Positions 12,645 to 24,855 of a stretch of DNA of 45,205 nucleotides are shown here, piece after piece. The position numbers and the translations under genes were made by a program. Source of the stretch: Candidatus Altiarchaeota archaeon (lineage in GTDB: Archaea; Altiarchaeota; Altiarchaeia; IMC4; QMZM01); assembly GCA_016931955.1 (NCBI GenBank), contig JAFGDV010000036.1:1-45205 (forward strand), in the 5' to 3' direction. Under the pieces are notes generated by a model. That model was not told the origin of the DNA, ran no database searches, and saw only the letters and a list, made by a program, of their open reading frames with translations. Position 1 is the first letter of the stretch, and every line of letters begins with the position of its first letter.

Positions 12645-13148
12645 GTGGTTAGAATAAAAAAAGTCAAAGGGATCATGTCAGGCAAGGTGATCTCCGTAAA
12701 GGCCAACGACTCCGTCTTAGAAGCCATCAAGGTCTTAAGGGACAACAGGGTCAGCGGCGTCCCAGTAGTAGACGAAAAAAACAATCTGTGTGGGGTGATG
12801 AGCGGGACGGATATATTAAAGCTGGTAGGTCACCTGATCGACTACCACCCCTTCCTGATACCATTCTTCAGGATACTTGAAGACCGCCCAGAGGACCTAC
12901 GGGATATAGTGAAGGAGGCTTCGAGGAGGGAGGTGAGGGAAATCATGTCAGAGCCCGCGATAACCATAGAAGAAAACGCCTCAGTATACTCTGCCGCAAC
13001 ACTGATGTTCAAGAGGGATATAAACAGGCTCCCTGTTGTGGATAAGAAAGGCTCACTGGTGGGAGTGATAACGAGAAAGGACCTGCTTCAGGCATTCAAG
13101 GACATAGGGGGAAGCGACACCAAATTAGGGAAGTGGGCAGGAGACTGA
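12645..13148 (+). CDS. CBS-domain pair protein
   Basis: SGVPVVD...GVMS..D and NRLPVVD...GVITRKDL; 3 bp after the ilvB stop. Confidence 0.9.
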   Translation: MVRIKKVKGIMSGKVISVKANDSVLEAIKVLRDNRVSGVPVVDEKNNLCGVMSGTDILKLVGHLIDYHPFLIPFFRILEDRPEDLRDIVKEASRREVREIMSEPAITIEENASVYSAATLMFKRDINRLPVVDKKGSLVGVITRKDLLQAFKDIGGSDTKLGKWAGD

Positions 13149-13151
13149 TCA

Positions 13152-13607
13152 CTAGTCAGATACTGTGATGTTTACGTCGTACCCTGGCGAATAGTCAGGA
13201 TTCATAGACTGAAAGACTAATACATAGCGGCCTTCAGCGCACACCCCCGAGCAAATAACGTCAGTGGCATCTCTTCCAGTCATGTTCGCCTTGGTGATAG
13301 AATAGACATCGGTAAAGGATTTGCCCACAGACAAACGGATCCTGACGACCTTACCTTCTATCGAAACATCCTCCACGTTACTTGGAATCGCTATCTCTGC
13401 AGGTATCTTTGATGGGTGGCCGTGGACGTAGATGAAATCCGCAGATTCTCTAATGCCTTGAACAGCGCGGTAGGCTGAATCAACGTCTATCTGCATCCCA
13501 GAAGTAGAGATCAAGAAGGTTGCTACATACAGAACCGCTGCAAAGATGATCAAAGAAAGACCAAGCATGGTCATGTATTCCAGTGAAACCTGCCCTCTAC
13601 TTTCCAT
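13152..13607 (-). CDS. class III signal peptide (type IV pilin-like) protein
   Basis: RG^QVSLEY followed by a hydrophobic helix, the PibD/EppA-type prepilin cleavage motif. Confidence 0.85.
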   Translation of the reverse strand: MESRGQVSLEYMTMLGLSLIIFAAVLYVATFLISTSGMQIDVDSAYRAVQGIRESADFIYVHGHPSKIPAEIAIPSNVEDVSIEGKVVRIRLSVGKSFTDVYSITKANMTGRDATDVICSGVCAEGRYVLVFQSMNPDYSPGYDVNITVSD

Positions 13608-13705: not shown

Positions 13706-13933
13706 ATGGAATACGAGACGCTTGCAAGCGAATACTTGGACTATGGGAGAAACAAGTTTTTGGAGCTTTCCAAGAAGAAGCCTCTGCCTGACGGCGAAGT
13801 CTTCTTGAATCTGTCTAAAGGTTATTATACGCCAGAGGGGGAGAGGAGATATCAGAAAGGAATCGGTTTCCCAAACGACGAAAAATTCGTAAAAGAATTG
13901 ATAGACAAGTTAAAAGAGATTTCAGGGGACTGA
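13706..13933 (+). CDS. small protein, possible PC4-like ssDNA-binding fold
   Basis: 75 aa with beta-strand pattern NKFLELSKK..VFLNLSKGYY..GERRYQKGIGFP and a C-terminal helix; own AT-rich upstream region. Confidence 0.65.
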   Translation: MEYETLASEYLDYGRNKFLELSKKKPLPDGEVFLNLSKGYYTPEGERRYQKGIGFPNDEKFVKELIDKLKEISGD

Positions 13934-13944
13934 GATAAGGCCTA

Positions 13945-14163
13945 TCAGGCTCTTCTGTTCTCCTCCAAGAGCCTGAGTTTCTCTTTTATATCCCCAAAGT
14001 GCTCTGAGTTAAGCTTCAGATAATGCTGAAAGTCTTTATAGACTCTCTGCAGTTCAGGATCGTCAGGATAACGCTTGGAGAATTTCTCAAATTCATCCCG
14101 CAGCTCGTTCAGATCACCCCACTTAGCCAGTATCTTTTCAAGTACATAATGGCTTGCTTGCAT
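13945..14163 (-). CDS. uncharacterised small helical protein, FEKF-RY paralogue 3 (72 aa)
   Basis: MQASHYVLEK...FEKFSKRYPDDPELQRVYKDFQHYL aligns with 15436-15774 and 15777-16079; ATG 4 bp after the CBS stop. Confidence 0.85.
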   Translation of the reverse strand: MQASHYVLEKILAKWGDLNELRDEFEKFSKRYPDDPELQRVYKDFQHYLKLNSEHFGDIKEKLRLLEENRRA

Positions 14164-14167
14164 TTCC

Positions 14168-14536
14168 TCATTTGATAAAGGATTTAAGGACGTCGGAATT
14201 TGAGATGATGCCGACAAGCTCCCCCTTGTCCACCACAGGAAACCTCCTCACGTTAGACTTAGCCATCAACCTGGCAACCTCTTTAACGCTAATATCCGGT
14301 GAAACCGTTAGGATAGGCTCTGTGAATACCTCAACAACCTTCACCTTGGTCAAGTCACCTTCATAGGCTATTACCTTGTTCACTATGTCCTTCCGTGTTA
14401 TAATGCCATACTCGCCCCCCTCTTTAACAAGCAAAGAACCTATGTCGTGTTTGATCATAAGCTTCATAGCCGCTGAAACAGGTGCGTCCTTCTTTATCGT
14501 AACAACGTCCTTCTTCATTATGTCGCAGACATTCAT
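14168..14536 (-). CDS. stand-alone CBS-pair protein (tandem copy 3)
   Basis: YGIITRKDIVNKVIAY and VRRFPVVD..LVGIISNSD; MNV start chosen by analogy with the neighbour (alternative ATG at 14542). Confidence 0.93.
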   Translation of the reverse strand: MNVCDIMKKDVVTIKKDAPVSAAMKLMIKHDIGSLLVKEGGEYGIITRKDIVNKVIAYEGDLTKVKVVEVFTEPILTVSPDISVKEVARLMAKSNVRRFPVVDKGELVGIISNSDVLKSFIK

Positions 14537-14546
14537 TTTCATACCC

Positions 14547-14933
14547 TTATTTTAAGCCCTTGCTCACCGCCTTCATTATGTCTGAGTTAGACACCATGCC
14601 GACGAGCTTGTTCCCCTCCATCACAGGGAACCTCCTTATATCGGTCTTAGCCATCAACCGAGCCACCGTTTCTATGCTCGCATCAGGTGACACACTAAGT
14701 ATCGGCTCGGACATGACCTCAGAAACCAACGTAGCCTTAATGTCTTTATCATAGGCTATTACCTTATTCACTATGTCCTTCCGTGTTATGATCCCATAGA
14801 CACTGTTTTTTCCTTTGTCTTCAATGACTAAGCTGGTTATCTGTTCTTCAACCATCTTATTCATCGCATCCAAGATGGTAGCATCTAGGTCTATTGATAT
14901 CACATTCTTTCGCATGATATCTCTGACATTCAT
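14547..14933 (-). CDS. stand-alone CBS-pair protein (tandem copy 2)
   Basis: YGIITRKDIVNKVIAY; IRRFPVMEGNKLVGMVSNSD. Confidence 0.93.
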   Translation of the reverse strand: MNVRDIMRKNVISIDLDATILDAMNKMVEEQITSLVIEDKGKNSVYGIITRKDIVNKVIAYDKDIKATLVSEVMSEPILSVSPDASIETVARLMAKTDIRRFPVMEGNKLVGMVSNSDIMKAVSKGLK

Positions 14934-15037
14934 TTTGATACCTACATGTTCTCCAAGGCTATCGCCTTCATTATGTCTGAGTTAGACACCATGCCGACGA
15001 GCTTGTTCCCCTCCATCACAGGGAACCTCCTTATATC
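14568..15037. repeat. 75-bp identical direct repeat inside two CBS genes (14568-14642 = 14963-15037)
   Basis: cgccttcattatgtctgag...aacctccttatatc matches base for base, including third codon positions. Confidence 0.95.
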
Positions 15038-15328
15038 AGTTTTAGCCATCAACCGGGCTATTGTTTCCACACTCATCTCCGGCGATATGGTCATCAACGG
15101 CTCGGACATGACCTCAGAAACCTTGACCTTGTTCGGGTCCTTGTTGTAGGCTATTACTTTATTGACTACGTCCTTGCGTGTCACTATCCCGTAGACTCCA
15201 TGCTCTCCCTCTTTCTCGACTATCAGGCTGGTCACCCGCCTATCAACCATCTTCTTCATCGCATCCATGACAGAAGCATCCTTACTGATTGTCATAATAC
15301 CCCGGGTCATAATCTCATTAGCATCCAT
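14942..15328 (-). CDS. stand-alone CBS-pair protein (tandem copy 1)
   Basis: YGIVTRKDVVNKVIAYNKDP; IRRFPVMEGNKLVGMVSNSD; GAGGTGA RBS upstream. Confidence 0.93.
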   Translation of the reverse strand: MDANEIMTRGIMTISKDASVMDAMKKMVDRRVTSLIVEKEGEHGVYGIVTRKDVVNKVIAYNKDPNKVKVSEVMSEPLMTISPEMSVETIARLMAKTDIRRFPVMEGNKLVGMVSNSDIMKAIALENM

Positions 15329-15385
15329 GTGATCACCTCAGTACCATAAGATATTAATTATTGAGTTTTATAAATAAAAAAAGAA
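15329..15385 (-). promoter_or_regulatory. probable T-run terminator for the upstream pair plus TATA promoter and RBS for the CBS operon
   Basis: Minus strand reads ttctttttttatTTATAAAaactc...GAGGTGAtcacATG. Confidence 0.55.
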
Positions 15386-15435
15386 ATCCGAGGATAGGAT
15401 AATCGCCAGTTCACTGTTGATTTGACGACTGGGGA

Positions 15436-15774
15436 TTAGGTCAGGGTGACAACCTGTCCATCCTGCCCCTTAGAGCGCAGTTGCTTGATTAGGGTCTCCA
15501 AGCGTCTCAAGTAGACGAGTTCGTCAAGCTCCTTTGTGATCCTTTCCATGAGCTCGTTGTCCCTGTGACCGAGGTAGTCCTCAAATTCGTCGCAGATGCA
15601 CTGGAGTTCTTCGTCGTTCTTATACCTTACAGCGAATTTCTCGAATGTGTCTTTTATGCTGGCTAACTCCGGCTCAACATCAGGTGCTTCAAATTTCACA
15701 TCCTGCTCCATGGAGACGAACTGGTCGAGCATGGAGGACATGTTTTTGAGTATATACGGTCCCGCTTTGATCAT
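15436..15774 (-). CDS. uncharacterised small helical protein, FEKF-RY paralogue 2 (112 aa)
   Basis: MIKAGPYILK...FEKFAVRYKNDEELQCICDEFEDYL; ATG 2 bp after the upstream stop. Confidence 0.85.
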   Translation of the reverse strand: MIKAGPYILKNMSSMLDQFVSMEQDVKFEAPDVEPELASIKDTFEKFAVRYKNDEELQCICDEFEDYLGHRDNELMERITKELDELVYLRRLETLIKQLRSKGQDGQVVTLT

Positions 15775-15776
15775 TT

Positions 15777-16079
15777 TTATGTAACCTTTATCAATTGCAT
15801 CGTTCCAGGACGCCTGTCCTTGAACCACAGCTTTGTTCCACCCACGCTCTCCTTTTTCCTGGCTTCGTTCAACCTCTCAAGGGTCTTCTTTATCTTCTCC
15901 AACTCCTCTCTGTTCCTTGTTCCTAGGTATGCCCTAAAGTTGTCGCAAATCTTTTGGAGGTCCCTGTCTTCTGAGTATCTGCTTGAGAACTTTTCGAAGA
16001 CGGCTTCGGTGTCTGCCAGGTCTTTTTTTTCCAAGACGATGGATATGCTTTTTATGACATAGTGGCTAGCCAAGACCAT
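15777..16079 (-). CDS. uncharacterised small helical protein, FEKF-RY paralogue 1 (100 aa)
   Basis: MVLASHYVIK...FEKFSSRYSEDRDLQKICDNFRAYL; strong GGAGGTGA RBS. Confidence 0.85.
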   Translation of the reverse strand: MVLASHYVIKSISIVLEKKDLADTEAVFEKFSSRYSEDRDLQKICDNFRAYLGTRNREELEKIKKTLERLNEARKKESVGGTKLWFKDRRPGTMQLIKVT

Positions 16080-16239
16080 TTTCACCTCCCCACATGATAG
16101 CCAATGTTGTTTAACAATGGTATTAATACATTAGACATAACTTATATATAAATGAGAACGTAATTATTAATCATGATAAATTAATTCTTGGATTTTTTTG
16201 AACGACATACAGATCAAAAAACTCTTGACTATATATTAT

Positions 16240-16890
16240 TCAAGATGACTGCTTCGCCCTCTCACGCTCCTTCTTGGCCTTAACCATCTTCAGACGAACA
16301 AAGCTCTCCCTCTCCATCTCCTCCAAGCGCATCTTGATATAACGCTTCGTATTGTAGAGACGGGGAATCAACACATACTCAAGGGCGTTAACCCTCCTGG
16401 TGGTCTTCTTTATCTCCTCGCCGAGAAGCCTGATCGTTTCCTCTTTCTCAACCAGGTTAAGGACCTGCTTCAGAGCCCGCTCAAATCCATCCACAGACTC
16501 GTCAAGCTTCGAGGAAGTGAAAGCCATATCATACCTCTCCCTGAATCCCTCAGCCCTTGTAAAAACCACCTTTGGGACCCTGACCCCAAAGATGTTCCCG
16601 AATGTTATGTCTATACCCCCCACCTCAGATGTAGAGGAAGAAACAGCCTGAACACTCTTGATGGACATACGAGCCTCAGCATCGATAAGATCCTCATAAG
16701 CGCGGTTGAGGGTCTCTGCCAGTTCCTCCCTGAGACCACCAGCCTGATCAATCCTCTGCAGAAACTCCGTCATCAGAGCGTCTCGTTTCTCCTTCAAGAG
16801 CTTATGACCCTTCACAGCCAGAACGATCCTCTTGTTGATCTCTATAAGCTCCATCCGAGTGGGGTGGACTCCCTCGATGATGTCTGCCAT
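16240..16890 (-). CDS. atpD: A/V-type ATP synthase subunit D
   Basis: PTRMELI..GHKLLKEKRDALM; EIKKTTRRVNALEY.LIP. Confidence 0.97.
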   Translation of the reverse strand: MADIIEGVHPTRMELIEINKRIVLAVKGHKLLKEKRDALMTEFLQRIDQAGGLREELAETLNRAYEDLIDAEARMSIKSVQAVSSSTSEVGGIDITFGNIFGVRVPKVVFTRAEGFRERYDMAFTSSKLDESVDGFERALKQVLNLVEKEETIRLLGEEIKKTTRRVNALEYVLIPRLYNTKRYIKMRLEEMERESFVRLKMVKAKKERERAKQSS

Positions 16891-16892
16891 CT

Positions 16893-18266
16893 TTACTTCT
16901 TGTAGTACTTCTCGATGAACTTAGGATTAATCCTCTTCAATTCCCTTTCAGGTATTATCGAAAGAAGATCCCAGCCAAGGGTCAGCGTGTCCTGAATACT
17001 CCTGTCATCGTCAGTTCCCTGATTTATGAACTCTGACTCGAAGCGCTCAGCAAACTCCAGGAACTTTTGATCCCTCTCAGACAAAGCTTCTTCACCCACA
17101 ACGGCGACCAGATCCCTAAGATCACGGCCTTCAGCATACATCGCATACATCTGATTGCTGACGTCACGGTGATCCGCCCTCGTCCTGCCCTCCCCAATAC
17201 CCTGATTCATCAACCTAGAAAGACAGGGTAATACGTCAATCGGAGGATAGATCTCCTTCCTGTGAAGCTGCCTGCTCAGAACGATTTGGCCCTCGGTTAT
17301 ATAACCAGTAAGATCCGGGATCGGATGAGTTATGTCGTCACCGGGCATCGTGAGGATCGGTATCTGGGTGATGCTACCCTTCTTCTCCTTGATCCTGCCA
17401 GCGCGCTCATAGCTCATAGCAAGATCAGTGTAGAGGTAACCTGGATAACCCCTCCTCCCAGGAACCTCCTCTCTCGCAGAGGATATCTCCCTCAAGGCCT
17501 CACAGTAATTCGTCAAATCCGTCAGGATAACGAGGATATCCATGCCCTTCTCAAACGCCAGAAACTCTGCCGTAGTCAATGCAAGTCTTGGAGTAATAAT
17601 ACGCTCAATGGTCGGATCATCCGCAAGGTTGATGAATGAGACAATCCGCTCCAAAGCGCCCGTCCTTTCAAAGTCCTTCCTGAAGAAGTGATACTCTGAG
17701 GAGGTGATGCCCATGGCTGCAAAGACGATGGCGAACTCGCTCTCCTTGCCAGGGACCTTGGCCTGCCTCGCTATCTGGGCTGCCAATTCGTTATGCGGCA
17801 GACCGGCTGCACTGAAGATCGGCAGCTTCTGCCCTCTTACCAATGTGTTCATCCCGTCGATGGCACTTACCCCTGTCTGAATGAATTCACGCGGAAAGTC
17901 CCTCGATGTGGGATTCATCGGGTAGCCTTCAATATTCCGCCTATCTTCAGGGATCACATCAGACCTGCCGTCTATGGGTCTGCCAGCGCCGTCAAAGATC
18001 CTGCCAAGCATGTCCAAGGAGACATCAATCTTCATGGTCTCCCCCAGAAAGCTGGCTCTTGTATTCTTAACATCCAAACCTGTAGTGCCTTCGAATACCT
18101 GCACCACGGCTTTATCCTCCATTGCATCAAGTACCTGACCAGTCTTCCTCTCCCCCCCACTGATCTCTATCTCCACTACCTCGCCGTAGCTGACATTACT
18201 CACTCCATCCACGATCATCAGCGGTCCTGCAACCTCAACCACGCTGGTATATTCCTTGATTAACAT
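16893..18266 (-). CDS. atpB: A/V-type ATP synthase subunit B
   Basis: [45 protein letters not shown]; start at ATG 18266. Confidence 0.98.
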
Positions 18267-18267
18267 T

Positions 18268-20019
18268 TTAAGCCTCCCCTCCCCCACTCAAGCCTTTAAT
18301 CTTTGCAATGATCTTGTTATATTCTCCATCGAATTTGTCCTCAGGAACGTACTTCATCTTGGCAATATCGTCGACGACATCCAGTTTACTTATCTCCAAC
18401 GACTCCATACCACCTTCCATGGCGATCATTGCCGCCTCATAGAAGTCCATTACTACGGAAAGCATCCTGTACTGTTTCTTCGGTGAACAATAGGTGTCGA
18501 TCTCATGGAATGCATTCTGCTGCAAGAAATCCTCCCTCAGCATCCTGGCAACGTCCAAGACGATCTTCTCCCTCTCAGGTAAGGCATCAGGCCCGACAAG
18601 CTGTACAATCTCCCTCAACTCGGACTCCTTCTGGAGTATCGTCATGGCCTCGACCCTCTTATCCGGGAAGTCCTCTGCTACATTCTCTTTGAACCAGTCA
18701 GTTAATCCTGGAGTGTACAGTGAATAAGAGGTAAGCCAGTTGATCGAGGGAAAGTGTCTCCTATCAGCTAGCTTCGCATCCAATGCCCAGAAAACCTGAG
18801 TGACTCTAAGGGTGTTCTGAGTAACGGGCTCCGAGAAGTCACCGCCAGGAGGGGAGACAGCCCCTATAACGGAGATGGAGCCAATCCTTTCATCGGTTCC
18901 CAGGGTGATGACCCTCCCAGCTCTCTCATAGAATTCAGCAAGCCTTGAAGCCAGGTAAGCAGGGTAGCCTTCTTCGCCAGGCATCTCCTCCAGTCTGCCG
19001 GAGATCTCCCTCATCGCCTCAGCCCATCTGGATGTTGAATCAGCCATCAATGAAGTATTGTAACCCATGTCTCTGTAGTATTCAGCAAGCGTGATTCCAG
19101 TATATACTGAGGCTTCCCTTGCGGCGACGGGCATGTTTGATGTATTCGCTATGAGACACGTCCTCTCCATCAATGGAAGCTTGTTCTTGGGATCCTCGAG
19201 GTGAGGGAACTCGTCCAACACCTCAGTCATCTCGTTGCCGCGTTCCCCGCAACCAACGTAGACAATGATCTCAGCATCAACCCATTTAGCCAGCTGGTGT
19301 TGTGAGACCGTCTTGCCAGTGCCGAAGCCTCCGGGGATGGCTGCAGTTCCCCCCTTCGCCAACGGGAAGAAGGTGTCGAAAACCCTCTGTCCACTTATCA
19401 ATGGAATGTTGCTCTCAAGCTTCTTCTTAAAGGGCCTCGGCTGCCTGACAGGCCAAAACTGTGTGCTGGTAATATCGTGATCCTTACCCCTTTCATCCCT
19501 TATTATGCATACTGTCTCAGTCACATCGAACTTACCATCCTCGATATGCTCCACCGTGCCGCTCACTCTCGGAGGCACCATGATCCTGTTCGTTATGACC
19601 CTAGTTTCTTTTATCTCACCTATTATGTCGCCTTCACTAAGTCGGTCGCCTTCCCTGACCTTGGGCACGAAATCCCACTTCTTCCCCCTGTCAATTGGGA
19701 GAACCACAATCCCTCGGGTTATGTAATCACCGGCCTTATCTCGTATAAGGTTTAATGGACGCTGAACCCCATCATAGATGGACTTAAGAACTCCAGGAGC
19801 CAGCTCAACAGAGAGGGACCTCCCCGTGGATTCAACTGGCTCGTTTGGGGTTAGTCCGGTTGTTTCCTCATATACTTGGATGGACGCTGTATCCCCAACC
19901 AGTTTTATGATCTCCCCAATCAATCCTTCTTCGCCTATCTTAACCAGCTCATACATCCTGCTTCCGCGCATTCCCTTAGCCTCTACCAGAGAACCGGCAA
20001 TTCTTGAAATCGTACCCAT
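18268..20019 (-). CDS. atpA: A/V-type ATP synthase catalytic subunit A (no intein)
   Basis: [10 protein letters not shown]-loop, [21 protein letters not shown]; ATG at 20019 with AGGAG RBS. Confidence 0.98.
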
Positions 20020-20020
20020 C

Positions 20021-20350
20021 TTAATCTCCTTTTCCTTTATCTCCACTACCCTTAGTCGATCTTATCTCAAAGCCTACTGTATCCTTTATCAGCTTTCTTA
20101 TTATATCCTCTCCGCCTCCACTCCTGTCAGGTATCTTTAGTATTATCTTGCCTGCGGACCTGATCTTTTTGATGCGCTCCTCTGCGCTGTCATAAAGCTT
20201 GTTCGTGATTAGGATGATGTCTGCTTCATCCTTTACCTTGTTCAATACATCTATAACGGTCTCTGTGGTTGCAGAGTACGCCTTCTTCACGCCTCCTAAA
20301 CCAAAGCCGGTTGTGGTGAGTTCGTCACCTATCAGACAAAGTCTCGTCAT
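20021..20350 (-). CDS. atpF: A/V-type ATP synthase subunit F
   Basis: [25 protein letters not shown]; position before subunit A. Confidence 0.93.
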
Positions 20351-20903
20351 TCTCAGCAAACAATATGGACGCTATCCTTGGTTTAAGTGTCTTCTTCATC
20401 TGCTTCAGCCTGCTTCCAAGGGTGCTGTCTATCCTCAATGTTCCCTCTTTATTAACGATTACGACGCCGAAGTCACCAAGCTCTGCGGCTTCGGCGCCCT
20501 TCAGCAGTTTTTTGTATTCGCCATCAACGAGGATAACAGGATCCTTAACCTCCTTCCTGCCTTCTTCAGCAAGAGCCTCCAGTGTTCTTTTCTTCTCTTT
20601 CTCGTTTAGGTTTAGTATGACACTCCCAGCCTCCTGGAAAACCTCGTCGATGATCCGGTTCTTCTCCGCACAGATCATCTCCTTGACCTGCGTTTTAGCG
20701 TCTGCTACAATCCTCTTCTGGATCATCTCTTTCTCTTTTTCACTGTCTCTCCTGATCTTCTCAGCCTGCTCTCCAGCGCTCTTCTGGAATCCAGCTCGTA
20801 TGCTCTCTATCTCCTTCTGTGTTTCGGCCTCGATCTTCTCAATCTCACTGGCGATGTTCTTCTTGATCTCCGCCTCAAGCTTTTCTAAGCCGATTCTAAT
20901 CAC
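20325..20903 (-). CDS. atpE: A/V-type ATP synthase subunit E
   Basis: GLEKL N-terminus, coiled coil, C-terminal GVVI...G..RIDST...RL...IASILF. Confidence 0.92.
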   Translation of the reverse strand: MIRIGLEKLEAEIKKNIASEIEKIEAETQKEIESIRAGFQKSAGEQAEKIRRDSEKEKEMIQKRIVADAKTQVKEMICAEKNRIIDEVFQEAGSVILNLNEKEKKRTLEALAEEGRKEVKDPVILVDGEYKKLLKGAEAAELGDFGVVIVNKEGTLRIDSTLGSRLKQMKKTLKPRIASILFAENDETLSDR

Positions 20904-21204
20904 CTCTAAGTTCCCTAATGACGAGTTCTATGGCGTCGCCCTTTTTCTTTGACGCCATCGTTTGTATCTTCACGACTTCAGCCTTTCCGGAAGCGATTAT
21001 CCCCTCCGCATCCTCCCTGGCCATCGATTTGGTCCTTTCAAGATCCGACGCTGCTTCTCTCTTCGCCTTATCTACAGCCTGCTGGATTATCTGGGCGCCT
21101 TCGGCCTTAGACTTCGCAATCTTTGACTCCGATTCCTTCTTAGCCGTCTCTACGGCCGCTACAACCTCCTGCTCAACCCGCTTAATCTGCGCTAGGTCCT
21201 TCAT
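20896..21204 (-). CDS. atpH: A-type ATP synthase subunit H (G-like peripheral stalk)
   Basis: 102-aa Ala/Glu/Lys coiled coil (LAQIKRVEQE) heading the operon. Confidence 0.85.
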   Translation of the reverse strand: MKDLAQIKRVEQEVVAAVETAKKESESKIAKSKAEGAQIIQQAVDKAKREAASDLERTKSMAREDAEGIIASGKAEVVKIQTMASKKKGDAIELVIRELRGD

Positions 21205-21404
21205 CTTCCCATGCCTCCTTGTTCAACCCAACCATCGGTGGTTTTTATAGTACTAATATAATGATTTATAATGTAGAATTTGAGCATATAAAATAATAGT
21301 TTAGGATATTAAAAAGTGTTATACATTAATTTATAATAGAAGACGTACAATATTATATACAGGGTGTTATTCAACTACAAAGATAAAAAAAGGAGGTGAA
21401 TGAA
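21205..21404. promoter_or_regulatory. AT-rich divergent promoter region between atpH and atpK
   Basis: Several TTTATA/TATATA boxes on both strands; AGGAGGTGA RBS before atpK. Confidence 0.6.
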
Positions 21405-21632
21405 ATGGAACTAACACCAGAGTTCGCGGCTGCATTGGTCATGGGTTTGTCAGCGATCGGGGCAGGATACGGCATCGGCGTATCAGGTAGTGCAGCAGTA
21501 GGTGCAACAGCAGAGAAACCAGAGACCTTTGGTAAGGTGATGATTTTCGTTGCTTTGGCGGAAGCCGTTGCTATCTATGGATTAGTAGTAGCGTTAATGA
21601 TCATACTGAGAATCGGCGTACCCGTCGAATAA
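21405..21632 (+). CDS. atpK: A-type ATP synthase proteolipid subunit K (c), single hairpin
   Basis: SAIGAGYGIG..G.AA.GA.AEKPE.FGK...ALAEAVAIYGL; ATG at 21405 after the RBS. Confidence 0.96.
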   Translation: MELTPEFAAALVMGLSAIGAGYGIGVSGSAAVGATAEKPETFGKVMIFVALAEAVAIYGLVVALMIILRIGVPVE

Positions 21633-21705: not shown

Positions 21706-22776
21706 TTATAATACAGGCGTCAGTAAGAGCATACCTACCTTCCCAGCAGGCAGACCCTCGCCTATGCCAACAGCGATAGCTCTGAGGTCATCTACCTCCA
21801 TCTCTTTAAGTTTCACGTAGCCGAGAATGAACCCAATCTCAAATGGCTGCTTAGCCATTATCCTTACGCCCTGTTTAGCAAGGTAACGCTTAAGTGATAA
21901 CTCAACAGGCAGCAGAGACTTTGTTTCTGCATAGGTAGCAACAGATTCTTTAATAACCTGCCCATAGGGGGTCTTCAATAGTTTTTCGAGGACACTAGAC
22001 ACGTGCCTCACACCATATTTGTCCAATTCATCTCTTATGACATACCTATCCAAATCCTTCAGGTAATAGCCTCCCCCAGGGATGATAAACCTGCTGGCAT
22101 CGAAGCCTCTCGCCGCAGCCCTCAGCACCGTTATTATATTTGCCCCCTCAATCTCCAAAGAAAGTAACATTGCAGCAGTCTTCCTACCGCCGCCACTGAG
22201 ATATTCGACTGCCTTGCTGAGTTCGGAAAAACAATACTTATCCAACGCAACCAACATATCCAACAGTTCCGGAGACGAAGGCATAAACCTGTCAAGGTTG
22301 CTATATCTCTCAAACAAAGACGATCTTATGTCGTTGAGTGACATATCAGCCAGTCGCTCTAAGAACTCCTCCACACCGCCGCCTGCGAAAAGTTGGCCTG
22401 ATTCCGATGCAGGCAAGACTCCTGTTATTTTATCCGATGGCGTATTACCTGCAAGGGAGTTAAGGACGAATTTAACGTATTCGAGCTCATATTTTTTTGA
22501 GACTGCATTGATAAATGGCCTGCAATCCTTGGGGGATATCATAGAAACCTTCGTAATCGTCCTCAGAAGGTCTATGGTTAGATACTGTTCCACCTCCTGT
22601 GGCGTAATCTTTTCAATCTTGGAGAACAGTTCACCGTAGGGTGTCTGCCTGAGGGACATGATAAATCCTTCCAAGCTGGATGCCCTCGAAAACGAATCGA
22701 TCTCTTTCTCACTCAGGAGAAGGCTTCTCATAACCCTGATCCTCGTATTCGAATATGCATAGTCTGCCAAGCTCAT
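21706..22776 (-). CDS. atpC: A/V-type ATP synthase subunit C (d/AC39)
   Basis: YAYSNTRIRVMRSLLL, TPYG twice, GYVKLKEMEVDDLRAI. Confidence 0.93.
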   Translation of the reverse strand: MSLADYAYSNTRIRVMRSLLLSEKEIDSFSRASSLEGFIMSLRQTPYGELFSKIEKITPQEVEQYLTIDLLRTITKVSMISPKDCRPFINAVSKKYELEYVKFVLNSLAGNTPSDKITGVLPASESGQLFAGGGVEEFLERLADMSLNDIRSSLFERYSNLDRFMPSSPELLDMLVALDKYCFSELSKAVEYLSGGGRKTAAMLLSLEIEGANIITVLRAAARGFDASRFIIPGGGYYLKDLDRYVIRDELDKYGVRHVSSVLEKLLKTPYGQVIKESVATYAETKSLLPVELSLKRYLAKQGVRIMAKQPFEIGFILGYVKLKEMEVDDLRAIAVGIGEGLPAGKVGMLLLTPVL

Positions 22777-22842
22777 TTTCACACTCTTACTTTTTAATAT
22801 CGACAGTATATATTTATTATTCTCCTATAAATTACAGCCAAA

Positions 22843-24855
22843 ATGTTCAAGCCACTGGAGATGAAGAGGATTCGAGTCCTCTTATTGGACAAATACCTGG
22901 ACCGCGTGATGGATGCTATAGGTCAGAAAGGTGCCATCCAGATGACCAAGGTGGAAGGAGGGGATACAGCAACCCCCGAAAGAAAGAAAACACTGGACGG
23001 ATACTCCTACGTGACAAACAGGATCCAGCGTTTAAAGGAGACGCTGAACGTCCAGCACAAGAGGATAGAGAAGGTCCCTCTACCCAAGAAATCAACGGAA
23101 GAGTACCTTAGAGAGATAGAGAAGACAATAGAGGGCATAGAGGCTGAAGCGGTTCCTACATCAGAGAAACTATCCAACCTCGGTGACGAAAGAAAAAAAC
23201 TGCAGGATGACATAGGAGCCTTAGAGGAACTTGAGAGGCTCAATATTGAAGCAAAGTGGCTTGGGACAACGGATCTGCTGTATGCGACTTCTGGATTCCT
23301 CGACATCAAGGACCTCAAGGAACTGAAATCAAGGATAAATAAGGCAACTGATGGGGATTTTATAGTCTTCGCAGACAAAGAAGAGGGTAAAGAAAAAACC
23401 CTCATCGTCATCGCAACGATAAAGGGTGGGAAGGAAGCTGTTGATGGAATCCTCCAGGACCTTAAATTCGAGCCATTCGAAGTAGCTGGTAAAGACATTA
23501 AGGAGGCCAGAGAAAGGCTGAAATCAATAGACGAGGAGAAGAAGAAGCTCCAAGAAGACTTGAACAAGATCAGAGAGAAGTACAGTGAAGACATCCTCGT
23601 TGCCGAAGAGATAGCCCAGATAGAAAAAAGCAGGCAGGAAGCTGTTCTGAATTTCGGCAGAAGTGAGAGGGTTTACGTTCTTGAAGGATGGATTCCCACT
23701 AAAGAGATAAAAAAAATCACAGAGGTAATAGATGACATCTCGAAGGGCTGCTGTGAGGTCAAGATATTTGAGCCAGAATCATACGATGAGATTCCAGTAT
23801 CATTAGACAACCCTAAGCTGATCAAACCCTTTGAGGTCATCATGGACATGTTCGGCATGCCTTTATATACTGAAATAGACCCAACACCCATACTCGCAAT
23901 AACCTTTCCACTATTCTTTGGGCTAATGTTCGGGGATGTCGGCCACGGTGCAGTCATCGCACTACTGGGGTTAGGAATTATAAGGATGAAAAAGGGGGAA
24001 GAATCCGCATGGAAGTTCGGGATGCTACTAGCCTACTGCGGAACTGCGGCAGTGATCTTCGGTTTCCTCTATGGAAGCCTCTTCGGCAACGAAGAGATAC
24101 TATCCCACCTGTATAAAGGATGGAACATCGGCCACCCAGTCCCAGCAGGACACGAGGAGCTGTGGGTTCTCTGGATGAGCCCACCCAATGAAGTGATGAG
24201 TATGATAGGGATTACACTCTTTATAGGAGCACTGCATATGGGGCTTGGGTTGATCGCCAGCACCATAAACAATATCCGCTGGAAGGGAAAGGGTGTTCTT
24301 CTACCATCGATTGCAAAGCTGTGGTTCTTCCTCGGCGAGGTAGCCATCATAACCGTGGCTTTCACTTTTCCGATACCTTTTTTCAATAAACTACCAGAGA
24401 TCATGCCGATGGAAATCATCGTAATCCTTGGTGTTGGAGTACCTGCTGCGGTAATACTCCTCGTCGAACTAACTCATGTGCTCCACCACTTCAGTATAAC
24501 GAACCTGTTGACTACAATAGGCAACGGACTCTTTGAGATCTTTGAGATGTTCTCCATGTTCCTCAGCAACACGATCTCCTACAGCAGGCTTCTCATCCTT
24601 GCAGTAGTCCACGCCATGATGATGGTCGCAATCTATTCAATCGCGGGCATGGAGTTGTTGTCTGGTCTGATAATAGTCGCCCCCCTTATCATAATATTCG
24701 GCAACATCCTAGTCATAGGGCTTGAAGGGCTTGTGGTTTTCATCCACACAATCAGGCTGCACTTCTATGAATGGTTCACCAAATTTTACCAGTCTGGTGG
24801 AATACCGTACACCCCATTCATAGTCAGGAGGAGATACACGACACTAACTGACTAA
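22843..24855 (+). CDS. atpI: A/V-type ATP synthase subunit I (a)
   Basis: MFKPLEMKR, LEGWIP, EIDPT...FGLMFGDVGHG, SNTISYSRL (essential Arg), IRLHFYEWFTKFY. Confidence 0.97.
   Translation: MFKPLEMKRIRVLLLDKYLDRVMDAIGQKGAIQMTKVEGGDTATPERKKTLDGYSYVTNRIQRLKETLNVQHKRIEKVPLPKKSTEEYLREIEKTIEGIEAEAVPTSEKLSNLGDERKKLQDDIGALEELERLNIEAKWLGTTDLLYATSGFLDIKDLKELKSRINKATDGDFIVFADKEEGKEKTLIVIATIKGGKEAVDGILQDLKFEPFEVAGKDIKEARERLKSIDEEKKKLQEDLNKIREKYSEDILVAEEIAQIEKSRQEAVLNFGRSERVYVLEGWIPTKEIKKITEVIDDISKGCCEVKIFEPESYDEIPVSLDNPKLIKPFEVIMDMFGMPLYTEIDPTPILAITFPLFFGLMFGDVGHGAVIALLGLGIIRMKKGEESAWKFGMLLAYCGTAAVIFGFLYGSLFGNEEILSHLYKGWNIGHPVPAGHEELWVLWMSPPNEVMSMIGITLFIGALHMGLGLIASTINNIRWKGKGVLLPSIAKLWFFLGEVAIITVAFTFPIPFFNKLPEIMPMEIIVILGVGVPAAVILLVELTHVLHHFSITNLLTTIGNGLFEIFEMFSMFLSNTISYSRLLILAVVHAMMMVAIYSIAGMELLSGLIIVAPLIIIFGNILVIGLEGLVVFIHTIRLHFYEWFTKFYQSGGIPYTPFIVRRRYTTLTD

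Follow-up and report, generated by a model that had tools for sequence, protein, structure and literature searches.

We analyzed a stretch of 45,205 nucleotides from a Candidatus Altiarchaeota archaeon (assembly GCA_016931955.1, contig JAFGDV010000036.1, positions 1 to 45,205; hereafter, the window), and in particular a block of six genes at 13945-16079, next to the genes for the A1AO ATP synthase. The block is read from the minus strand, and its six genes encode, in gene order, two small helical proteins (HEL-1, 15777-16079; HEL-2, 15436-15774), three proteins with a pair of CBS domains (CBS-1, 14942-15328; CBS-2, 14547-14933; CBS-3, 14168-14542), and a third helical protein (HEL-3, 13945-14163). 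The gaps between consecutive genes are 2, 107, 8, 4, and 4 bp. The stop codon of atpD, which encodes the central-stalk subunit D, is at 16240, and the ATG of HEL-1 is at 16079, so the block begins 160 bp after atpD. Ribosome binding sites are found upstream of HEL-1 (GGAGGTGA) and upstream of CBS-1 (GAGGTGA), and none of the six genes encodes an enzyme or a transporter. An earlier description of this DNA (the original prediction) had reported the order and orientation of the genes, the tight spacing with one larger gap, the two ribosome binding sites, and the lack of enzymes and transporters, and all of these are correct.

HEL-1 has 100 amino acids and ends in a conserved C-terminal tail, GGTKLWFKDRRP. 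HEL-2 (112 amino acids) has a 16-residue insertion after helix 1 and lacks the canonical tail, and HEL-3, which starts 4 bp past CBS-3, is a tail-less paralogue of 72 amino acids. Both are 39-42% identical to HEL-1, and an alignment of the three proteins has 21 invariant columns. The three CBS proteins are 54-63% identical to each other: CBS-1 (128 amino acids) is a stand-alone CBS pair, or Bateman module, and its tandem paralogues CBS-2 (128 amino acids) and CBS-3 (124 amino acids) are 63% and 54% identical to it. The original prediction described two families that are expanded three to three. Both triples are indeed paralogous within the block, but the genome encodes six HEL proteins, not three.

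HEL proteins have no match in Pfam, NCBIfam, PADLOC, or PHROGs, and where they already carry a label, it is "hypothetical protein." Our profile of 51 members matches HEL-1 with E = 6e-38; with a threshold of E = 0.001, it finds only 176 representatives in a set of 1.84 billion proteins. Nearly all of these representatives have 70-140 amino acids, and some metagenomic homologues (P0023, P0025, and P0027) are the size of HEL-3 (72-73 amino acids). HEL proteins are small (8.9-13.2 kDa) and hydrophilic (GRAVY of -0.47 to -1.11), with a conserved N-terminus (M-x-x-A-S-H-Y-V) and a motif that we call invariant, RYxxD, which is present in 68 of the 70 genes that we examined. The tail is a glycine-rich loop followed by L-W-[F/Y]-x-D-R-R; a strict pattern for it (GGxxLW[F/Y]xDRR) is found in 45 of the 70 proteins, and it misses several variants. 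Because the ratio of non-synonymous to synonymous changes (dN/dS) is just 0.05-0.31 in all 8 of the 8 pairs of close orthologs, HEL genes are real coding genes under purifying selection. By these comparisons, HEL is a new protein family with clear motifs for annotation.

An AlphaFold2 model of HEL-1, made with the family alignment, has a pLDDT of 82.5 and a pTM of 0.63, with helices at residues 6-17, 21-34, 39-54, and 57-79. The tail (80-100) is disordered in the model, at low confidence. A crude scan for hydrophobic periodicity also gives four helices, and we are confident in the predicted fold, which is an up-down four-helix bundle of about 80 residues. The best VIA-align scores are to the helical domain of ArnB (Z = 9.0), FRB (8.7), FliS (7.7), and Psb27 (6.9). 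All of these are below the level that is meaningful for helical bundles (Z of about 13). When the HEL profile was compared to the PDB by sequence, the best hits were to helical bundles designed de novo, and none was better than E = 0.028. There is a weak lead to SNAP/TPR-like hairpins: in language-model features, a HEL protein of family f7 is near SNAP fragments (0.92, with 192 shared features), and HEL-1 is at 0.81. In Pfam, TPR_14 is matched by 2 of the 51 members and TPR_6 by 1 of the 51, all below the cut-off, and the HEL profile touches the TPR_14 stretch of P0173. We also considered whether HEL is fused to other domains, but the apparent fusions (P0140, P0160, P0173, and the N-terminally extended P0113 and P0122) have unrelated sequence or Pfam domains alongside and appear to be chimeric gene calls, or else a TPR protein, rather than true fusions.

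To see where HEL genes are, we collected the flanks of 60 matches (about 7 kb to either side), which yielded 70 HEL genes from 37 genomes, and we labelled the neighbors with local profiles and Pfam. For 24 of the 70 HEL genes, one of the three genes that precede it on its strand is atpD or atpB. To avoid a bias towards HEL, we also counted from atpD, which was matched at 52 loci in 47 of the 49 genomes of the window's order. HEL is at most 1.6 kb downstream of atpD, and on the same strand, at 30 of the 52 loci (28 of the 47 genomes), in some cases with a CBS gene or atpK in between. The gap between atpD and HEL has a median of 2.5 bp; in 10 of 12 genomes other than the window's, it ranges from -4 to 19 bp (three are overlaps of 4 bp), as against 160 bp in the window. 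The gap from atpD to CBS has a median of -4 bp, and the gap from CBS to HEL has a median of 1 bp. These junctions are operon-like. HEL also lies elsewhere among the ATP synthase genes: the order is atpK-HEL-CBS-atpI in all four genomes of genus g5, atpB-HEL-atpF-atpI in G031, and atpC-HEL-HEL-...-atpE-...-atpA in G011.

The CBS gene usually comes along. At 21 of the 30 atpD-HEL loci, there is a CBS gene in the block, and one more locus stops at the end of its contig. The order is either atpD-HEL-CBS or atpD-CBS-HEL, with the latter being typical of family f7. These data support the view that, throughout the order, the A1AO ATP synthase operon recurrently ends in HEL and the CBS-pair gene. The original prediction had suggested looking for co-occurrence of HEL with these CBS proteins and with atp genes, and this is borne out at the loci just described, but HEL homologues also occur independently of CBS genes. 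Among the 70 HEL genes, 28 share a same-strand block with a CBS gene, which is directly adjacent in 25 cases; 13 of the 28 are away from atp genes. The other 42 have no CBS gene in the block. The detached pairs include HEL-CBS after an IlvE-like gene in one genus, HEL-CBS after a KaiC-like gene in another genus, and a second locus in each of G005 and G012 with the order HEL-HEL-CBS.

Each of the three CBS proteins of the window has two CBS domains, with scores against PF00571 of 102.7 bits (CBS-1), 109.5 bits (CBS-2), and 105 bits (CBS-3), compared to a cut-off of 24; the E values range from 1e-29 to 1e-32 (1.3e-29 for CBS-1). The motifs GIITRKD and G(M/I)(V/I)SNSD are conserved in the alignment of the CBS family. 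They resemble G-h-h-S/T-x-x-D, a ribose-binding motif, and are candidates for binding an adenosine-containing ligand. CBS-1 is the prototype of the subfamily that is linked to HEL: among the 25 CBS proteins from HEL blocks in other genomes, 21 are CBS-1 orthologues, with CBS-1 as their best match (48-79% identity). Across the phylum, 24 of the 61 genomes have members of the CBS-1 subfamily. In G004 (L097), a CBS-1 ortholog lies directly after atpD without HEL. Because the CBS-1 subfamily is also found without HEL in another order, and because 42 of the 70 HEL genes lack a CBS gene, HEL and CBS are not obligate partners. The idea of a dedicated and obligate 3:3 system fails on these grounds and on the presence of HEL paralogues in other contexts; the original prediction had itself named independent occurrence of HEL homologues as a refutation.

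The HEL profile has matches in 45 of the 49 genomes of the order. In the two other families of the class, it has matches in 0 of 4 and 2 of 8 genomes, and the latter two matches are marginal. By these searches, HEL is essentially absent outside of the order. In one genome of family f8 that we checked downstream of atpD, there is no HEL-like open reading frame (ORF) of 50 amino acids or more. A tree of HEL proteins shows that the families other than f1 mostly have a single, atp-linked HEL, so the atp-linked position looks ancestral. Family f1, which includes the window, has expanded HEL into clades with other contexts. HEL-1 is orthologous to the atpD-linked HEL of G001 and G002, and the ortholog of HEL-2 in G003 is the second HEL after atpD (support of 100/100). 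HEL-1 and HEL-2 belong to a clade that is specific to f1, and HEL-3 groups with a mostly atp-linked clade from other families. G001, which is from the same genus as the window, has atpD-HEL-CBS with one copy of each, and the 3+3 amplification is peculiar to the window's genome. Tandem pairs of HEL genes always combine one protein that bears the tail with one that does not (in the window, G003, G005, G012, and G011). We speculate that this pairing points to heterodimers or decoys.

The other three HEL genes of the window's 1.55-Mb genome are on other contigs. Two of them are in tandem, between a gene for an HTH-FIST protein and the gene for prolyl-tRNA synthetase (ProRS), and the third follows Ftr and a GcvH-like gene. 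The original prediction raised carbon fixation as another process that the block might control, and the paralogue after Ftr-GcvH is the sole pointer in that direction.

Within the window, the block probably forms two transcription units with their own promoters, HEL-1/HEL-2 and CBS-1 to CBS-3/HEL-3, because AT-rich, TATA-like boxes are found in both of the larger spacers, and the second one follows an oligo-T run. Reading from the sequence, the 160-bp spacer between atpD and HEL-1 (16080-16239, minus strand) is AT-rich and contains TTTATATATA about 65 nt before the ATG of HEL-1, and the 107-bp spacer between HEL-2 and CBS-1 (15329-15435, minus strand) has the oligo-T run and then apparently a second such box, TTTATTTATAAAA. 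We call these boxes TATA-like by comparison to the archaeal consensus. The two units may be regulated separately from the atp genes.

The window also encodes all nine of the nine canonical A-type subunits as separate genes. On the minus strand are atpD (16240-16890), which was the query for the counts above; atpB (16893-18287) and atpA (18268-20046), which encode the catalytic-head subunits, were identified from their translations, and served as reference proteins for labelling neighbors; and atpF (20021-20359), atpE (20325-20903), an atpH/G-like gene (20896-21204), and atpC (21706-22782), which were identified by Pfam matches. On the plus strand are atpK (21396-21632, a Pfam match), which lies between atpC and atpH, and atpI, which encodes subunit a and is divergent (22843-24855; PF01496, E = 1e-34). 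We considered, and rejected, the idea that HEL takes the place of a canonical subunit. The hhalign probability between HEL and the window's atpH was 0.1, and the atpH/G-like gene is separate. With all nine subunits accounted for and no resemblance between HEL and subunit H, we conclude that HEL is an additional protein rather than a divergent subunit.

When we compared the CBS profile to the PDB, the best match was the cyanobacterial protein CBS-CP12 (5nmu_A; E = 2.1e-38, residues 6-124), which puts the CBS pairs of the block in the same subfamily. CBS-CP12 binds AMP, not ADP, ATP, or cAMP; it forms hexamers via its CP12 part; and, with AMP, it lowers the activity of phosphoribulokinase (PRK) (PMC6142219). 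The logic would also be the same, with an adenylate-sensing Bateman module joined to a small regulatory protein that acts on an enzyme. There are also clear differences. In CBS-CP12, the CP12 part is fused to the CBS pair, whereas CBS-1, CBS-2, and CBS-3 end after the second domain (124-128 amino acids) and HEL is a separate gene; and the context of CBS-CP12 is Calvin-cycle or thioredoxin genes instead of the archaeal ATP synthase. The HEL profile has no match to 5nmu at E values of up to 10, and HEL has no similarity to CP12.

The next matches of the CBS profile in the PDB include chains of 9zni, 9znf, and 9zng (E = 8e-34 to 2e-20). These codes appear in a preprint (bioRxiv 10.64898/2026.01.19.700200) about ribosome hibernation in Methanosarcina acetivorans. 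The factors that it describes, Sri, are CBS proteins that are encoded in tandem, bind as pairs, and become more abundant when energy is limited. The block resembles the Sri/Dri proteins in having tandem paralogues, in the tie to energy limitation, and in the CBS module itself (E = 8e-34). But a Sri protein has 270-340 amino acids and four tandem CBS domains, as against 124-128 amino acids and two domains in CBS-1 to CBS-3, and the sections of the preprint that we consulted describe no HEL-like partner. By these comparisons, the block's CBS proteins count as ordinary members of the CBS-pair superfamily near the CBS-CP12 subfamily, and they are not Sri proteins.

We know of no protein regulator of the archaeal A1AO ATP synthase and of no protein inhibitor of an A-type enzyme, and our literature searches found neither. 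Nor did we find, in the literature searched, any A-type ATP synthase operon that carries a CBS sensor together with a small helical protein as accessory genes. In function, such a combination would be comparable to CBS-CP12 and to inhibitors of F-type enzymes (IF1, zeta, and epsilon). For F-type enzymes, several small inhibitors are known: the zeta subunit of Paracoccus, mitochondrial IF1, bacterial epsilon, and cyanobacterial AtpTheta. These are small and largely helical, with a flexible terminal segment that acts on the enzyme, and HEL has a similar size and also combines a bundle with a flexible, conserved end. Like HEL, epsilon is encoded with ATP synthase genes. The differences are that these inhibitors act on F-type enzymes and that the flexible end of HEL is C-terminal. 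HEL does not match the Pfam families for zeta, IF1, or epsilon at E values of up to 1, and these proteins are absent from the top rows of the Foldseek and VIA results, which leaves room for a similar bundle. Zeta has an inhibitory N-terminus that is like that of IF1 (PMC10469736). The closest analogue by position is AhaG, whose gene follows ahaD in the aha operon of Methanosarcina mazei, just as HEL is downstream of atpD at 30 of the 52 loci. AhaG is a 6.3-kDa protein with a very hydrophobic peptide, and its role in the complex is described as unresolved (PMC4350412). The published description sets it apart from HEL, which is larger and hydrophilic.

The block is a locally amplified version of a conserved HEL+CBS module at the 3' end of the A1AO operon, and we propose that the pair couples the adenylate state of the cell to the ATP synthase. 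A CBS dimer would sense AMP, ADP, or ATP by binding it, and HEL would be an adaptor or effector that binds the CBS dimer and contacts the enzyme, probably through its tail. The outcome would be either to restrain wasteful ATP hydrolysis or to help with the assembly of A1. We think that there is an even chance that this explanation is correct. It retains part of the original prediction of an adenylate-sensing module that is tied to the ATPase: the gene order, the persistence of detached pairs, and the AMP-specific CBS-CP12 as the nearest structure all fit, but the module is neither dedicated nor obligate.

Several results argue against this proposal. No HEL is found downstream of atpD at 22 of the 52 loci, including in all five genomes of genus g6 and all three of genus g7, and 8 of the 30 atpD-HEL loci have no CBS gene. 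HEL is not ATPase-specific in every copy, because in family f1, its paralogues adjoin other genes (Ftr-GcvH, HTH-FIST/ProRS, FEN1, argG, and KaiC-like genes). Four HEL-block CBS proteins from family f7 share just 24-30% identity with any of the CBS proteins that the window's genome encodes. In family f8, which belongs to another order of the same class and lacks HEL, the CBS-1 subfamily is present in 3 of the 4 genomes without HEL or atp genes nearby. In the window itself, the 160-bp spacer with its promoter-like sequence parts the block from atpD, and co-transcription is not assured there. Finally, the model suggests a generic four-helix bundle without an informative structural neighbor: in a search of solved structures with Foldseek, nothing matched at E values of up to 0.001, and the best E value was 0.96.

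HEL might instead be a chaperone for assembly or stability of the A1 head or stalk, which would be needed only while the enzyme is being built, with CBS as an independent, energy-sensing passenger. That HEL is the last cistron, which is the position of ahaG in M. mazei, would fit (a role in assembly has been discussed for AhaG; PMC4350412), and so would the loci that have HEL after atpD but no CBS gene. The weak structural neighbors include four-helix chaperones and assembly factors, namely FliS and Psb27, but their Z scores are within the range expected of any helical bundle. A chaperone would not account for the 13 HEL genes that remain paired with CBS away from atp genes, or for the paralogues in unrelated contexts, and we find this explanation unlikely. 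Those same paralogues (beside Ftr-GcvH, FEN1, the HTH-FIST gene, and others) favor a general energy-stress module, whose targets would be something other than the ATP synthase, such as ribosomes or several enzymes. Co-transcription with atp genes would then make its level track energy metabolism, and the various HEL paralogues would adapt it to different targets. The similarity of the CBS profile to the Sri entries 9zni, 9znf, and 9zng is consistent with this, as are the CBS-1-like tandems in another order, which adjoin an AAA_17 kinase-like gene and not atp genes. However, HEL is inserted among the structural genes of the ATP synthase in three arrangements, and its overlapping stop-start junctions with atpD point to that enzyme; and besides the difference in the number of CBS domains, the window's genome has its own four-CBS genes elsewhere. 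We also consider a general module to be rather improbable.

Alternatively, there might be no functional link at all: chance or selfish duplication might have made these small genes passengers at the tail of a highly expressed operon, with CBS nearby because CBS genes are abundant in archaea. Copies of HEL are found at many sites in family f1, and CBS genes are common, with about 15 in the window's genome. But we estimate that CBS genes would make up about 2% of random neighbors (about 15 CBS genes per about 1,500 genes), as compared to 25 of 70 HEL genes with a directly adjacent CBS gene. Given that the linkage is kept across at least 5 families of the order, in either gene order and with tight junctions, and given the purifying selection on HEL, the lack of a link is very unlikely.

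A bolder form of our proposal is that HEL is the first protein regulator of the archaeal A-type ATP synthase. The GGxxLWFxDRR tail would enter the A3B3/D interface and block ATP hydrolysis when energy is scarce; an AMP-sensing CBS dimer would release or recruit HEL; and the tail-less HEL-2 and HEL-3 would be decoys or heterodimer partners. We are doubtful that this is correct. If it were, HEL would do for the A-type enzyme what IF1 or zeta does for the F-type, with an adenylate sensor built in, and it would bear on how energy-starved subsurface autotrophs such as the Altiarchaeota avoid wasting ATP. Either way, HEL is a bounded candidate that could be tested with purified proteins: a small family that spans the order, with genes embedded in ATP synthase operons and in most cases accompanied by a CBS protein of the AMP-binding CBS-CP12 type.

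Other CBS proteins in this genome and its relatives deserve mention. A fourth CBS-pair protein is encoded in the window, after ilvB (12645-13148, plus strand); it has 167 amino acids, is 33% identical to CBS-1, and has an insertion of about 20 residues between the two domains. The genome (G000) also encodes four-CBS proteins of 255-284 amino acids (C23:87736-88515, C23:98068-99430, and C24:82-936), which may be Sri-like hibernation factors. One of those on C23 is beside a 181-amino-acid CBS-pair protein, and the one on C24 is two genes from the HEL paralogue that follows Ftr-GcvH. In family f8, two or three tandem CBS-1-like genes lie beside the AAA_17 kinase-like gene, which encodes 182 amino acids (L094, L095, and L096), and there is a GYD-domain gene in one of these genomes. 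Among HEL proteins, a variant in G011 (L057 6833-7246), directly after atpC, has an N-terminal hydrophobic segment that probably spans the membrane, and a 140-amino-acid representative, P0165, is similar to it.

The ATP synthase genes of the window are split over both strands. After atpI, and up to 25669 on the plus strand, are genes for a 75-amino-acid membrane protein with a weak match to ATPase_gene1 (AtpZ/I-like) and a 201-amino-acid ORF. Five genomes of the order (G038, G050, G037, G023, and G028) have two atpD loci, which may be two ATP synthase operons or mixed bins; in G038 and G050, HEL follows both copies of atpD. In G004, a stop codon splits atpD (L097 6554-7243) into ORFs of 123 and 103 amino acids, which could be an assembly error or a broken gene.

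No tRNA genes or Rfam families were found in the window. On the far side of the block, a 75-amino-acid ORF (13706-13933, plus strand) is convergent with HEL-3 and has no match in Pfam, NCBIfam, PADLOC, or PHROGs. Its position is kept in relatives, with 78-84 amino acids (L033, L047, L049, and L097 5717-5953), and the copy in L097 is nearly identical to it in sequence. Beyond it, a 151-amino-acid protein (13152-13607, minus strand) has a weak match, below the cut-off, to the class III (archaeal pilin-type) signal peptide (PF04021, E = 0.0024). ORFs of 146-153 amino acids are at the same position beside the CBS/HEL block in several f1 genomes, and in L034, a nearby ORF of 191 amino acids has the same weak match to PF04021.

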